A stretch of DNA of 64,000 nucleotides from Methanobacteriota archaeon (GCA_018691345.1 JABGTJ010000039.1:33074-97073), one strand, 5' to 3'; shown: positions 5,279 to 62,446, counted from the stretch's first letter. Program-made: numbers and translations. The notes: generated from the letters alone by a model not told the origin.

Positions 5279-10019
<4,741 letters not shown>

Positions 10020-28517: not shown

Positions 28518-29819
28518 ATGACTATGCAAGGCGGGACAATCAAGGATAAGGCCTTGGAAAAAATCGGCCAAAAACTCCTGAGCAAAGGATTCAATCTTTC
28601 TTCCTTGAACGACAAAGAGTTGGCTGAAGTCGCAGTTCGGTTCACTGGAGACAGTCCTCCAGCACACATTCCGAGAGAGACGGTCATTGAGATATTGGCG
28701 CAGCAAGATTCAGTAAAACAATGGGCGCAATCAATCAAACAAAACATTGCACCTAGTGCAAAAGGTGCCGTCACTGAACAGATCCGTAACCGTGTAGACA
28801 CCGTACAAGCTACGGTGTCCAAGAAAATAGAATCCGACCCTATGGCGGCTAAAATGGCAGACAACTTTGGTAAATGGCTCAAGGACTCGGGCTATACTAC
28901 TGCACAACTCACGCAAATGCTCGATTCAAATTCGGACATGTACATTTCCAACGATGAAGCAATGAAGTTTGTTCGAGAAATCTCCAAGACTGAACCACCT
29001 CAATGGGTCATCGACTCGTTGATGAAAATTATGGACTCAAACGATGATGGCCGGCTATCGGTGGAGGAATGGTGGGTGTTCCTCGAATCAATTGGGTTTG
29101 AAAAAGCACCTGAAACAGCCACTGAGGTTGAAGAAGAAATCAATGATGATGAATTTGGAGACCTTGAGGAAGAATTTCAAGGCGAAACAAAGTCGATTGA
29201 AGAACTCAAAAAAGACCAACAAGAAGCCGCTCGTATTATGGCAGAAGCCAATAATGAGGCTGCTGAAAGAATCAAAAGGCAGGAAGAAGAACTAAAGAAA
29301 ACAATGGCCAGTGTATCCGTCGAAGAAGTAACGCAAGAAATCGATGATTCTGCTCGAGAAATTGCTTCTGCCGTCGGAATTGCAAGCGTGAGTGCTGCTT
29401 CTGTTGCATCTCAAGTCGATGAGGAGGCAGTCGCTGTCCGAGTGCCCGTCACTGATGGTTCCATTTCATGGGAAATTGAAAATCCGAATGAGATTATGAT
29501 TGAGAGATTAGAACAATCGCGTCTTTCAAGCGAGGCTGATGCGATTATTGCTGAGTGTTACGAACATCTTTGCGCCCTTCGAGTCGAAGAAGTCGAGCGT
29601 ACACTGCTTGCAAAGGATGAGTTCCGTGGTGGCTACACCATCGTAGGTGAATTCGATGGCGGCCCATTCTCCGCTGGAGTGATGTTCCCTGAATCAGAAA
29701 ACGACACGATACTCGCATTCAAGATTGGTACGACAATCAGCTGCGTCGGGAAAATCGTGAAATGGTCCAGTGGAAGAAGGCAAGCGGTTCTCAAAGGAAG
29801 AGACCCTGTTCTGCGCTGA
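28518..29819 (+). CDS. EF-hand pair protein with an acidic coiled-coil linker and an uncharacterised C-terminal domain
   Basis: Two EF-hand loops: DSNSDMYISNDE (residues 136-147) and DSNDDGRLSVEE (residues 173-184, a canonical D-x-N-x-D-G-x-L-x-x-x-E). Both are flanked by amphipathic helices (TQMLDSN..EAMKFV, IDSLMKIM..EEWWVFLESIG). These are followed by an E/K-rich coiled coil and a ~120-aa C-terminal domain. Confidence 0.6.
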   Translation: MTMQGGTIKDKALEKIGQKLLSKGFNLSSLNDKELAEVAVRFTGDSPPAHIPRETVIEILAQQDSVKQWAQSIKQNIAPSAKGAVTEQIRNRVDTVQATVSKKIESDPMAAKMADNFGKWLKDSGYTTAQLTQMLDSNSDMYISNDEAMKFVREISKTEPPQWVIDSLMKIMDSNDDGRLSVEEWWVFLESIGFEKAPETATEVEEEINDDEFGDLEEEFQGETKSIEELKKDQQEAARIMAEANNEAAERIKRQEEELKKTMASVSVEEVTQEIDDSAREIASAVGIASVSAASVASQVDEEAVAVRVPVTDGSISWEIENPNEIMIERLEQSRLSSEADAIIAECYEHLCALRVEEVERTLLAKDEFRGGYTIVGEFDGGPFSAGVMFPESENDTILAFKIGTTISCVGKIVKWSSGRRQAVLKGRDPVLR

Positions 29820-59406: not shown

Positions 59407-59730
59407 TCACAGGAAAAGTGGCAAAGCACCGAGAATCACGATGGATTCCGGCAACGCAGTGAAAATAAGTGCAACACCGAATTTGCTTCCGTCTTCAGCA
59501 AGCATGCCGACAGCTGCGCTGCCAATGGCTGCTTGAGAAAGACCTGCACCAATTGCTGCAAGTCCTAGGGCAATTCCAGCACCGATAGCAGAGTAGCCCG
59601 ATCCGTCGGATTGGGTGAATTCTGCTGTTTCTTTTTCGGTCAATTCTGCTGTGACACCTTGAGCAACCATGGTGATGGCTGCCAAAAGGATCAATGTTCT
59701 TAGGCTCATTTTTAGGGTATTTACGTTCAT
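59407..59730 (-). CDS. atpK: A-type ATP synthase proteolipid subunit K (c-ring) with an N-terminal signal-peptide-like extension
   Basis: The C-terminal hairpin is GAGIALGLAAIGAGLSQAAIGSAAVGMLAEDGSKFGVALIFTALPESIVILGALPLFL, with the ion-binding Glu in PESIV. The N-terminal ~35 aa (MSLRTLILLAAITMVAQGVTAELTEKETAEF) are extra. Confidence 0.8.
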   Translation of the reverse strand: MNVNTLKMSLRTLILLAAITMVAQGVTAELTEKETAEFTQSDGSGYSAIGAGIALGLAAIGAGLSQAAIGSAAVGMLAEDGSKFGVALIFTALPESIVILGALPLFL

Positions 59731-59760: not shown

Positions 59761-62109
59761 CTATGATTTATTCTCCACATGGAGATTACGGCCACCGAGC
59801 GGTGCAAAGGCACGGCCGGACCCGTCGTAGAATTTGCCCATCCATTCCACAAAGTGGAGACGGGCAGCGTGAATCGTTGGGGAAAGGATTCCCAGTGCTA
59901 TAGCGAAAACTTGAATGAAGAGGAACAAGACCAGGCAGAGCAGTCCAACAAGAATACCAAAAATTCCACCGCTTGTGAATGCGTCAACCATAGGCTCGAA
60001 GCCCATGGTGATGGACACTTCTGCGATTTTGACGCCGGCAACACCGACAGCCATGATGCGCAGATAAGAGAGTGTGTTTGCGAGAAGACCGAATGTTTCG
60101 ATAGGACCCATGATAAGGCCACCAGCCCATCCGAACTTCTCGAAGATGGCCAAACCGATGATAAGGCTGATGATGCCAACAATCAGCATGACCGTCCAGA
60201 TTTGGAAGTCGAACAGATCATTGTAACCGGAAACCATGTTTCGGCACTGCATGAATCCTCCAATGAGGATGAGGAGCCAAGAGCCCTTTTCGAAGTACGC
60301 TGCTGCAGCTCCATGTGCTTTGTAGACGTTGATGAGCCCAAGCATGTAACCAATGAAGATGTGAATCGCACCAAGGTAGATGGAGAGTATAACGTATTCT
60401 TGCAATCCATGGCCTGCCTCTGCTCTGTGGAAAGGCATGTGGAGTCCGCCGAGATTGAGTAAGTCCGCCAAAGTCGATGGGACATGGACGTTAGCATAGG
60501 TCCATTCATAGAATCCATTGAAAGGTGAATCGGCACCCATTTGTCCGGTTTTATCCCAAACGAAGCCAAAGCCTTCAGCAAATATAATCCCCCAAATGAT
60601 ACACCAGACGCCCATCCAGCGAAGAATAGTAAGTCCTTTTTGCGCCATAGGGTCAACTGCAAATGCTTTGCTACCGAGCCAGGCAGCCAAGAGGAGAAGA
60701 ACAATTCCATATCCCCAGTCTCCCAAAATCATTCCGTAGATGAATGGGAAAGTCATCATGATGAGTGTTGTTGGGTCGAAAGTACCGTACTTTGGACGTC
60801 CCACCAAGTCAACCATCAGTTCAAACGGTTCAGAAGTCGAACTGTTCGTGTATTCAATAGGAGGCTCGACATCGTGGCTTCCGTCGTCATGCGAAGGAGC
60901 ATTACGAATGCGAGTCAAAGTAATGTCAAGTTCTGGAAGATTGATTTTCCCATCACCATCGAGGTCAACAGCTGCAACGAGTTTACCCATTTCCCAAGGC
61001 GGGAGATTGGCAATATTGGCGTTCTTGAGTGCTGTTTGGAACTCATAACAGTCGATAAGACCGGATTCATCCAAGTCGATGGCGTTGAAGAATTGGAAAA
61101 CAGTCTGATTTGATTTGTTCAGGTAGTTCGAGAGCATCAAGAGTTCTTCGGGGTCGGAAGAGCCGTGATCTTCGTGTTCGCCGTGATCGTGATGTCCACC
61201 TTCGTACGCCTCAACCGATACGTGAGATGCAACCTTTGACAATTCTGCCTCTACCATGCTCGCTTGGTCTGTTGGGACCCATCCATCTAGAGCAAAGGCT
61301 TGGTTGCTGACTGCAACCAATGTTGGCGCCGTAAAGACGGCAGCCTCACGGTTAAGGTATTCTTTTGCAGCGACTAGGTTTCGACCGTTTCGAAGTGTCC
61401 AGGCATCAAGTGCGGACTGTGTGTCGGTGATTTTTGATTCAAGGAGAGCGATTTCTGAAAGGAGTTTTTTTGATTTTTCAGCAGGTGAGCCCTCTCCCGC
61501 AGGAATTTGGACAGGTTTCGAGCCCAACTCTGCCATGCAGATTTGAACTTCAGCGGAGTGTTCTGAGCGGCATGCAACTGCAACGAGTCCGCCGGCAGCA
61601 TGCAGTTCAATCTCACTAAGAATGTCTGCAAAAACTTCCTTTGCCTTCGAAAAACGACGAGTTTCGCCTACGAATACTTCGAGACCTTCGTATCCTGCCA
61701 TCAATTCGAGAGGTATGTCTAATGGAGCAAGTCGATTCAAAACTTGGAATTGCTCTTCAGAGGATGAAATCGTGGCCTCAGCATCACGGATGGTATCGAT
61801 GTATTCGAGAGCTGCCGTGATTTTCTCTTCAAAGCCAACAATCATCTTGGAGGCTTCTTTGTGAGACATTGGCCCATCGGAATTAACTGCCAGTACGGCT
61901 GAAGAGACTGCTTGTACCTTGACCAGTAGGCTGCTGATGGCGTTGGCTTCATCAGAACTCATTGAAGAACCGACGCCAATGCCGTCTTCGAATCGCCCAT
62001 ACTCTTCGATATGGACGCACGAAAGGTCAGTGCAAAGACGGAGAATTTCTTCTAACTTTTCAACAGGAGCCGCTACTGTGAGACGGGACATGTCGGAAGT
62101 AGCAAACAT
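59761..62109 (-). CDS. atpI: A-type ATP synthase subunit I (stator a-subunit), carrying an inserted His-rich and double EF-hand module
   Basis: 782 aa. It has the N-terminal cytoplasmic domain and a C-terminal 7-8 TM domain with the conserved Arg (LSYLRIMAVGVAG). An insertion at residues ~305-430 (nt ~60822-61197) reads GGHHDHGEHEDHG ... AIDLDESGLIDCYEF ... AVDLDGDGKINLPEL. Confidence 0.85.
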   Translation of the reverse strand: MFATSDMSRLTVAAPVEKLEEILRLCTDLSCVHIEEYGRFEDGIGVGSSMSSDEANAISSLLVKVQAVSSAVLAVNSDGPMSHKEASKMIVGFEEKITAALEYIDTIRDAEATISSSEEQFQVLNRLAPLDIPLELMAGYEGLEVFVGETRRFSKAKEVFADILSEIELHAAGGLVAVACRSEHSAEVQICMAELGSKPVQIPAGEGSPAEKSKKLLSEIALLESKITDTQSALDAWTLRNGRNLVAAKEYLNREAAVFTAPTLVAVSNQAFALDGWVPTDQASMVEAELSKVASHVSVEAYEGGHHDHGEHEDHGSSDPEELLMLSNYLNKSNQTVFQFFNAIDLDESGLIDCYEFQTALKNANIANLPPWEMGKLVAAVDLDGDGKINLPELDITLTRIRNAPSHDDGSHDVEPPIEYTNSSTSEPFELMVDLVGRPKYGTFDPTTLIMMTFPFIYGMILGDWGYGIVLLLLAAWLGSKAFAVDPMAQKGLTILRWMGVWCIIWGIIFAEGFGFVWDKTGQMGADSPFNGFYEWTYANVHVPSTLADLLNLGGLHMPFHRAEAGHGLQEYVILSIYLGAIHIFIGYMLGLINVYKAHGAAAAYFEKGSWLLILIGGFMQCRNMVSGYNDLFDFQIWTVMLIVGIISLIIGLAIFEKFGWAGGLIMGPIETFGLLANTLSYLRIMAVGVAGVKIAEVSITMGFEPMVDAFTSGGIFGILVGLLCLVLFLFIQVFAIALGILSPTIHAARLHFVEWMGKFYDGSGRAFAPLGGRNLHVENKS

Positions 62110-62119
62110 TGGGAACGCC

Positions 62120-62446
62120 TCACTGTGAAGTTACTGAATCAAGAAGACTCTTGACTGCTTTTTCTTTTCGACTGGATGCAGACGATTCGATATTTTCGAC
62201 GATCGATGCGCCATCTTTGAGGACTGCATCTGCTTCTTTACCTGCTTTCGAGCGTGCTGCATCGAGCGTAGCCTGAGTTTCGCTTACTGAATCTTCAGTA
62301 GCGCCGGTAACAAGTGCTGCAGCCTCACGACGGGCATCGGCAGTGATTTTGTTGGACTCTGTTTGAGCGGAAGAAAGTCGCTTTTCAGCAGACTGCTCAG
62401 CCTCTTTGATTTTTCGGAGGACATCTTTCATACCCAAGTAAATCAC
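62120..62446 (-). CDS. atpH: A-type ATP synthase subunit H
   Basis: 108 aa, helical, charged. It is the first gene of the H-I-K-E-C-F-A-B-D operon. Confidence 0.65.
   Translation of the reverse strand: MIYLGMKDVLRKIKEAEQSAEKRLSSAQTESNKITADARREAAALVTGATEDSVSETQATLDAARSKAGKEADAVLKDGASIVENIESSASSRKEKAVKSLLDSVTSQ

Follow-up and report, generated by a model that had tools for sequence, protein, structure and literature searches.

The window analysed here (the whole stretch of 64,000 nucleotides from a Methanobacteriota archaeon) carries on its minus strand the gene atpI, which encodes stator subunit I of an A-type ATP synthase, a homologue of subunit a. The 782-residue AtpI protein contains a pair of EF-hands nested between its cytoplasmic N-terminal domain and its membrane domain. 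A Pfam profile search places the open reading frame in the subunit a/I family (V_ATPase_I, PF01496; 102.2 bits, cut-off 30.7). Scores against the NCBIfam subunit-I equivalog models are strong (378 bits at best) but lie below the equivalog cut-offs (at least 670), and AtpI is thus a divergent member of subunit I. The gene and its parts are laid out as follows, with residues numbered along AtpI.

59761..62109, minus strand: atpI, A-type ATP synthase stator subunit I (a-subunit homologue), a 782-residue open reading frame assigned by PF01496 and its operon neighbours.
61204..62109, minus strand: cytoplasmic N-terminal domain (residues 1-302) with a predicted proximal lobe, coiled-coil hairpin and distal lobe, assigned by AlphaFold2 secondary structure and by alignment with the N-domains of relatives.
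61162..61203, minus strand: N-terminal half of a His/Asp-rich loop (residues 303-316, EGGHHDHGEHEDHG), a flexible linker with a predicted local distance difference test score (pLDDT) below 50 and a pairwise identity of 0.49.
60895..61161, minus strand: inserted EF-hand module of 89 residues (317-405), made up of helix 0, EF-hand 1 and EF-hand 2; absent from the nearest relatives, and assigned by Pfam, AlphaFold2 and Foldseek.
61114..61149, minus strand: helix 0, an amphipathic helix (residues 321-332, EELLMLSNYLNK) ahead of EF-hand 1, seen in both AlphaFold2 models and conserved.
61042..61077, minus strand: predicted calcium-binding loop of EF-hand 1 (residues 345-356, DLDESGLIDCYE), assigned by pattern match, with invariant ligand positions.
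60931..60966, minus strand: predicted calcium-binding loop of EF-hand 2 (residues 382-393, DLDGDGKINLPE), assigned by pattern match, with a modelled beta-bridge to loop 1.
60865..60894, minus strand: C-terminal half of the His/Asp-rich loop (residues 406-415, SHDDGSHDVE), a flexible linker with pLDDT below 50 and a pairwise identity of 0.29.
59761..60864, minus strand: PPIEY..N motif, interfacial helix and membrane domain (residues 416-782 and the stop codon), assigned by alignment with a/I subunits in the PDB and by hydrophobic segments.

The AtpI insert is a genuine, canonical EF-hand pair. The original prediction had named two EF-hand loops and the helices on either side of them, and Pfam, pattern and Foldseek results bear this out, in agreement with the helices modelled around the loops (residues 337-343, 354-363, 374-381 and 391-403). 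Three Pfam profile hidden Markov models pass their cut-offs in AtpI, namely EF-hand_1 (PF00036; 30.5, cut-off 25.4), EF-hand_5 (PF13202; 26.9, cut-off 25.9) and EF-hand_6 (PF13405; 26.3, cut-off 25.0), with EF-hand_7 (PF13499) slightly under, and the profile check upholds the assignment. Each of the two 12-residue loops has Asp at position 1, Asp or Asn at position 3, Ser or Asp at position 5, Gly at position 6, a hydrophobic residue at position 8 and Glu at position 12, with a modelled helix on either side. Both also fit the full 13-position PROSITE-type EF-hand pattern; among 20,000 shuffles of the protein, 42 contained one match to this pattern and none contained two. In a search against PDB sequences, residues 320-396 match calmodulins and centrins.

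Structural models agree with the sequence matches. In the full-length AlphaFold2 model, the EF region is the only part of the extra segment that is modelled with confidence (pLDDT 70-83), and pLDDT falls below 50 at residues 303-317 and 405-463. Modelling of the domain alone (core pLDDT 84-88) revealed helix 0 followed by two helix-loop-helix units. DSSP assigned strand or bridge residues to both loops in both AlphaFold2 models (i.e., the beta-bridge of a paired EF-hand domain, as far as the models go). When the module model was compared with the PDB by Foldseek, all 50 of the best 50 matches were EF-hand proteins (probability 0.99-1.00), including calmodulin lobes, centrins, parvalbumins, ACF7 EF1-EF2 (root-mean-square deviation 2.2, 76 columns) and calcyphosine (root-mean-square deviation 1.8, 80 columns). 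Dockerin type I (PF00404) was considered as another identity for the loops and rejected: its score of 16.4 lies below the cut-off of 22.9, a helix enters each of the two loops, and the site is in the cytoplasmic N-domain.

The boundaries of the module were set by alignment with module-free relatives, drawn from a library of 50%-identity representatives and from GTDB species representatives. The module lies after the last proximal-lobe strand (residues 296-301) and before a PPI(E/Q)(Y/F)xN motif, which leads into the interfacial helix and then the first transmembrane helix. No hydrophobic segment occurs between the N-domain and residue 456, so the extra segment shares the cytoplasmic side with the N-terminal arm. 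Subunits a/I in the PDB (Enterococcus hirae 8WCI, Thermus 5GAR/6QUM and eukaryotic a) align with AtpI only from residues 412-416 onward. The original prediction had drawn an insertion of ~125 residues at 60822-61197 (residues 305-430). A real insertion of about 90-110 residues does exist at the junction of the N-domain and the membrane domain, but the range drawn runs into the conserved PPIEY..N..PFE segment, and the module itself comprises residues 317-405. A His-rich patch had also been counted as part of the insertion, and this does not hold. The His-rich string GGHHDHGEHEDHG (residues 304-316) belongs to an ancestral loop: all the Poseidoniales subunit I sequences examined have it in this position, whether or not they carry EF-hands, with 5-9 His (e.g., VDDHHHHDDDHDDDHGHHEPTPPV). 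A weaker and shorter His version is present in Methanomassiliicoccales, haloarchaea have an acidic stretch of 45-70 residues, and most other archaea and bacteria have 3-6 residues at this site. On these alignments, the EF-hand module was inserted into the pre-existing His/Asp loop, splitting it in two. Together, the module and its linkers (residues 301-415) are strongly acidic, with 23 Asp and Glu against 6 Lys and Arg in 115 residues.

Because the length and composition of this loop vary by lineage (3-6 residues, His-rich or long and acidic), it is exposed and tolerant of insertions, and the subunit-I loop before the membrane domain is a recurrent insertion hot spot that has taken up His-rich, acidic and EF-hand inserts. 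Haloarchaeal subunit I (L049, L050, L052, L060 and L078; P0250, P0259 and P0260) has an acidic low-complexity insert of ~30-70 residues in the same loop. Elsewhere in the protein, an 842-residue, MGIIb-side-like subunit I relative (P0133; MGIIb, marine group IIb) has an extra hydrophobic insertion of ~100 residues between the C-terminal membrane helices (alignment columns ~875-1000).

EF-hand domains occur together with PF01496 in all 120 of the best 90%-identity clusters listed (60-94% identity, 770-802 residues), and these clusters draw on five sources (ENA, JGI, NCBI, Tara and Logan). Since the same in-frame architecture recurs in at least 120 clusters from independent assemblies, the junctions are not an assembly artefact, and the concern that the region might be a chimera falls away. 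Within the 50%-identity library, one representative, P0091, aligns with the query over its whole length; for most of the others that are full-length, the match falls into separate stretches on either side of the module. The closest module-free representatives in this library, P0121 (56% identity, 684 residues) and P0122 (679 residues), lack the module by alignment; members of the P0121 cluster carry the name Candidatus Poseidoniaceae. For GTDB species representatives, where the counts are a sample among the matches listed rather than a census, the module is present in 5 (L001-L005). It is absent from 16 other Poseidoniaceae-like (marine group IIa, MGIIa) loci (L006-L021) and from 25 further Poseidoniales loci (L023-L047), of which those with a family name are Thalassarchaeaceae/MGIIb. 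A neighbour-joining tree of subunit I (insert columns excluded, no support values) groups the EF-bearing sequences as one clade nested in MGIIa. On the simplest reading of this distribution, the module was inserted once, in an ancestor from which one Poseidoniaceae (MGIIa) sub-clade descends. The expectation that the insertion would be lineage-specific was thus borne out by comparison with subunit I of Poseidoniales and other archaea, and the lineage is narrowed to that one sub-clade.

The sequence of the module is well conserved where it is present. Across 24 EF-bearing homologues (61-95% identity to the query), D345, D347, S349, G350 and E356 of loop 1 are invariant, as are D382, D386, G387, N390 and E393 of loop 2, in which position 384 is Asp or Asn. 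Helix 0 residues E322, L323, M325, L326 and L330 are likewise invariant in the 24 sequences, and conservation is high, too, in the LPPW and INLPELD motifs of the module. The membrane domain is the part most alike between pairs of homologues (mean identity 0.77), followed by the module (0.65), the N-domain (0.60) and the N-terminal and C-terminal linkers (0.49 and 0.29). Synonymous sites are saturated, and the comparison was therefore made on nonsynonymous divergence (dN) alone, with no ratio to synonymous divergence (dN/dS): dN is 0.031 in the module vs 0.088 in the N-domain against L002, and 0.130 vs 0.194 against L001. The invariant ligands and the lower dN than in the N-domain show that purifying selection acts on the module, metal-ligand positions included.

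The module is not confined to AtpI. A protein search with the insert only revealed small EF-hand proteins (66-147 residues; P0328-P0343) that are 63-75% identical to it over helix 0, EF-hand 1, the linker and EF-hand 2. All matches in this search were short proteins, with no AtpI among them, so the search does not provide a full list of module-bearing architectures. The stand-alone proteins share the LPPWEM linker and the INLPELD motif with the AtpI module, and helix 0 is conserved in them too. A SAP domain (PF02037) is annotated in the C-terminal tails of P0332 and P0344 (SAP/HeH-like), and P0345 and P0346 have similar tails. P0337 (147 residues) is a separate gene on contigs of 39.6 kb and 26 kb. 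The identity of 63-75% points to a shared, shuffled module. In a module tree, the stand-alone copies fall together with AtpI inserts of the query's own type (YEFQ), apart from the other AtpI sub-clade (EIE type); this tree is built on 85 residues without support values, and it shows close paralogy but does not fix the direction of transfer. The AtpI module and the small stand-alone EF-hand proteins share recent ancestry. No stand-alone paralogue gene was found within the 64-kb window, and a scan of IMG/VR did not find the module on viral contigs.

Two observations concern the surroundings of the stand-alone genes. The gene for P0337 lies directly upstream of a gene for a 430-residue GTPase (MMR_HSR1, YGR210-like, TGS) in two independent contigs (L081, 6001-6444; L082, 1854-2297). 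On a 10.6-kb metagenome contig with 41% GC (L083), a gene at 5848-6225 encodes the same EF-hand module with a SAP/HeH-like tail (P0346). That contig is crowded with small open reading frames lacking Pfam matches, and the call of the gene at 5848-6225 looks truncated by a frameshift. Matches in a PHROGs scan of the contig were too weak to tell whether it is viral.

Within the window, the same loop type had been thought to recur in GyrA and in a 433-residue protein, but both fall below the Pfam cut-offs and neither is a copy of the module. The GyrA gene (5279-8056, minus strand) encodes a single EF-hand-like 12-residue loop in its C-terminal tail (residues ~893-914; nucleotides 5327-5362; EF-hand_1 22.8 vs 25.4), and its match to the module is a non-significant one of 20 residues (E 0.71). 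The 433-residue open reading frame (28518-29819, plus strand) has an EF-hand-pair-like region at residues ~133-193 (DSNDDGRLSVEE; EF-hand_7 28.8 vs 30) and was rejected as a copy because it is only ~24% identical to the module. The true paralogues of the AtpI module are the small stand-alone EF-hand proteins, which are outside the window.

The gene neighbourhood of atpI is that of an A-type ATP synthase operon. Gene order on the minus strand is G-like H, I, c/K, E, C/AC39 and A, and two open reading frames after A occupy the positions expected for B and D (candidate B and D, placed by position). The adjoining open reading frames match the Pfam families V-ATPase_G-like (weakly), ATP-synt_C, vATP-synt_E, vATP-synt_AC39 and ATP-synt_ab. 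The two genes that flank atpI are as follows.

62120..62446, minus strand: atpH, G-like peripheral-stalk subunit, with weak V-ATPase_G matches; kept upstream of atpI in related loci.
59407..59730, minus strand: atpK, c subunit (PF00137, 44.9 bits).

Outside the insert, AtpI has features of a stator subunit. In the full-length AlphaFold2 model, which is of low confidence (pLDDT 62; predicted template modelling score, pTM, 0.33), the N-domain consists of a strand at 7-15, a helix at 93-130, distal strands at 143-181, a helix at 209-260 and strands at 271-279 and 296-301, the last being the final proximal-lobe strand. This order of elements fits a two-lobe arm with a coiled-coil hairpin. The membrane domain includes R684 (nucleotides 60058-60060) within NTLSYLRIM, and we take R684 of the LSYLR motif to be the conserved stator arginine of the C-terminal membrane helices. 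All of 18 relatives (25-61% identical to the query) have S681, Y682 and R684, and P417 is likewise invariant in distant relatives.

The c subunit has features of its own. The atpK product begins with a signal-peptide-like N-terminal extension of ~28 residues (MNVNTLKMSLRTLILLAAITMVAQGVTA) followed by an acidic spacer, and related Poseidoniales loci (L001-L047) have similar extensions where the atpK match extends to the start of the protein. At the ion site of the c subunit, most MGIIa-side loci have SQ...PES, and MGIIb-side loci mostly have SQ...PET. The Q...ES motif presumably resembles that of Na+-binding c subunits.

What, then, might an EF-hand pair do in a stator subunit? We lean towards a functional calcium-binding module that acts on the stator. 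Because each loop has a complete set of ligands, with Glu at position 12, we infer that both bind Ca2+. The module hangs on two flexible tethers of ~10-15 residues each at the foot of the stator and, since its site is the last proximal-lobe loop before the membrane domain, it would be near the proximal E/H peripheral-stalk anchor, subunit C (d) and the c-ring. The soluble arm of subunit a has a proximal and a distal lobe, each of which binds an EG stalk, and rotation can be blocked mechanically when this arm touches subunit d of the rotor (PMC7367684). Binding of Ca2+ could change the conformation of the module and alter how it packs against a neighbouring stator or rotor surface, candidate surfaces being the peripheral-stalk anchor, subunit C (d) and the cytoplasmic loops of the c-ring. 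Altered packing would then tune or brake the enzyme as cytoplasmic Ca2+ shifts (e.g., less ATP hydrolysis or ion leak when seawater Ca2+ floods the cell). The boldest form of this proposal makes the tethered EF-hand pair a direct Ca2+-dependent clutch or brake, acting either where the stator arm meets the rotor (subunit C, c-ring) or on the peripheral-stalk anchor, with the stand-alone paralogues as trans-acting versions in relatives; in so specific a form, we regard it as unlikely.

Several points weigh against a calcium-dependent action on the stator. Ca2+ signalling is, to our knowledge, not established in archaea. The pair model EF-hand_7 scores 28.0, slightly under its cut-off of 30. The full-length AlphaFold2 model is poor, with the pLDDT and pTM given above, and does not predict the position of the module in the complex. 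Clade-specific substitutions in subunit I that would mark a docking surface were sought and none were found, only M137/L and I584/L differing, and in the comparison of related loci AtpH and AtpK are the same between clades with and without the module. Furthermore, the extra helix 0 could serve as a built-in ligand of the hydrophobic cleft, and helix 0 and the parvalbumin matches would fit a self-capped EF-hand domain of buffer type or structural type equally well.

These points bear on a reading in which the module is a structural passenger, i.e., a stable EF-hand pair in a permissive loop that is constitutively filled with Ca2+ or Mg2+, has no regulatory role and is kept since its unfolding or loss would disturb the stator. 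We judge this rather unlikely, though several points suit it: the loop is an insertion hot spot with His-rich and long acidic inserts in other lineages, no co-evolving positions are seen elsewhere in subunit I, AtpH or AtpK, low-confidence and poorly conserved linkers tether the module, and the conserved extra helix could cap the hydrophobic cleft of a parvalbumin-like domain. However, ligands that are invariant in both loops and a dN below that of the N-domain (the 0.031 vs 0.088 pair, synonymous sites being saturated across the clade) are unexpected of a neutral insert, and the retention of the same module in other protein contexts suggests a portable function. A chimera of atpI with a fragment of an EF-hand gene, arising in assembly or sequencing, has a negligible probability given that the in-frame architecture and its conserved junctions recur in all 120 clusters listed from five sources and in 5 GTDB species representatives, and that the EF-positive sequences are monophyletic.

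Two further readings give the module another role, and we grant each of them little chance. In other proton-translocating proteins, clusters of His and carboxylates act as antennae that collect protons or as sites of metal inhibition, and the His/Asp loop (with Zn2+, Ni2+, Cu2+ or protons) and the EF-hands could together form a composite divalent-metal site that handles ions locally, rather than signalling, where the ion path opens to the cytoplasm, as an antenna for cations or protons or as a buffer. The EF module does sit inside the His loop, residues 301-415 are very acidic, and a loop of 5-9 His with Asp/Glu is conserved across Poseidoniales and partly in Methanomassiliicoccales. Yet the His loop is far older than the EF module, most Poseidoniales lack the module, the loop sequence is poorly conserved in detail (0.49 and 0.29), and the c-subunit Q...ES motif, if we are right to liken it to Na+ sites, would weaken a role as proton antenna. 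EF-hand domains also often dimerise (S100 proteins, polcalcins and penta-EF-hand proteins), and the pair could be a docking or oligomerisation device that binds the stand-alone EF-hand proteins, itself (as in an ATP synthase dimer) or another partner, with Ca2+ as a mere structural cofactor and the fusion as a Rosetta stone for the interaction. Close paralogues (63-75% identity) that exist as separate genes, some with the SAP/HeH-like C-terminal motif, and that nest among the query-type AtpI inserts in the module tree would suit such docking; set against this, the 64-kb window has no stand-alone gene, and the tree rests on 85 residues without support values.

The regulatory calcium-binding module remains the reading that we prefer, and its interest lies in how rotary ATPases are controlled. 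Known modes of regulation include inhibitor proteins, inhibition by ADP, reversible disassembly and contacts of the a-arm with subunit d; we know of no rotary ATPase regulated by a calcium-binding domain built into the stator. Poseidoniales, of which no cultured representative is known, are among the most abundant planktonic archaea and live in seawater with 10 mM Ca2+. Should the module bind Ca2+ and act on the enzyme, a divalent-cation signal would be linked directly to energy conversion in an archaeon, and if the module gates the enzyme, AtpI would be a Rosetta-stone fusion that exposes a Ca2+ signalling input to archaeal bioenergetics. Whatever its effect, the finding documents a small EF-hand module shuffled between contexts in these archaea. 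W372 in the linker between EF-hand 1 and EF-hand 2 is a possible intrinsic fluorescence probe. A survey describes families with calcium-binding domains specific to MGIIa and MGIIb and does not mention ATP synthase (PMC9258230). The original prediction knew of no EF-hand in an a/I subunit, and our literature search likewise found no paper describing one. The domain architecture of AtpI is new among the stator subunits of rotary ATPases, although both of its parts (EF-hand and subunit a/I) are known families.

Compared with the solved subunits of Thermus thermophilus (5GAR/6QUM family) and Enterococcus hirae (NtpI, 8WCI), AtpI has a homologous membrane domain, the LSYLR motif, the same operon context and probably the arm with proximal and distal lobes. 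The solved subunits are 649-672 residues long with 3-6 residues at the site, whereas AtpI has the His/Asp loop and the 89-residue module. EF-lacking Poseidoniaceae (the P0121 cluster and L006-L021) and the further Poseidoniales loci L023-L047 have the same His/Asp loop and the same operon neighbours as the query; the EF-lacking MGIIa subunits are 678-692 residues long, without the module, and the best segments of L006-L021 are 58-73% identical to the query. The stand-alone EF-hand proteins have the same module as AtpI, but as separate genes or fused to other sequences rather than within a membrane protein. With calmodulin, centrin, ACF7 EF1-EF2, calcyphosine and parvalbumins, the AtpI module shares the paired helix-loop-helix fold and the loop ligands. 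Pairs of the calmodulin-lobe type and parvalbumins are, however, only 21-34% identical to it, and the AtpI pair is nested in a stator loop, with an extra N-terminal helix in place of a second lobe.

Three systems offer functional parallels. In the Ca2+-regulated mitochondrial carriers (the ATP-Mg/Pi carrier SCaMC and aralar/citrin), EF-hand domains gate a membrane transport protein in response to Ca2+. These carriers are the closest analogy in function, but they form an unrelated eukaryotic family, with the EF-hands in an N-terminal domain and not inserted in a loop. The nearest reported case of an EF-hand-type domain on a V-type ATPase is mEAK-7, a separate protein on the mammalian V-ATPase that attaches to subunits B and E by way of its TLDc domain and a C-terminal helix; the EF-hand-like region of mEAK-7 is without acidic ligands, showed no response to Ca2+ in circular dichroism or cryo-electron microscopy and is described as structural, not calcium-sensing (PMC9263379). 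Both mEAK-7 and AtpI thus place an EF-hand-type domain on a rotary ATPase of V/A type, but mEAK-7 does so in trans, whereas the AtpI loops are canonical and part of the stator. Finally, auto-inhibition of Vo in Thermus and yeast is set off by loss of V1, not by Ca2+, and uses no extra domain, but in this state the arm, including its proximal lobe, contacts subunit d, which is the type of contact that a tethered EF-hand module could make (PMC7367684).

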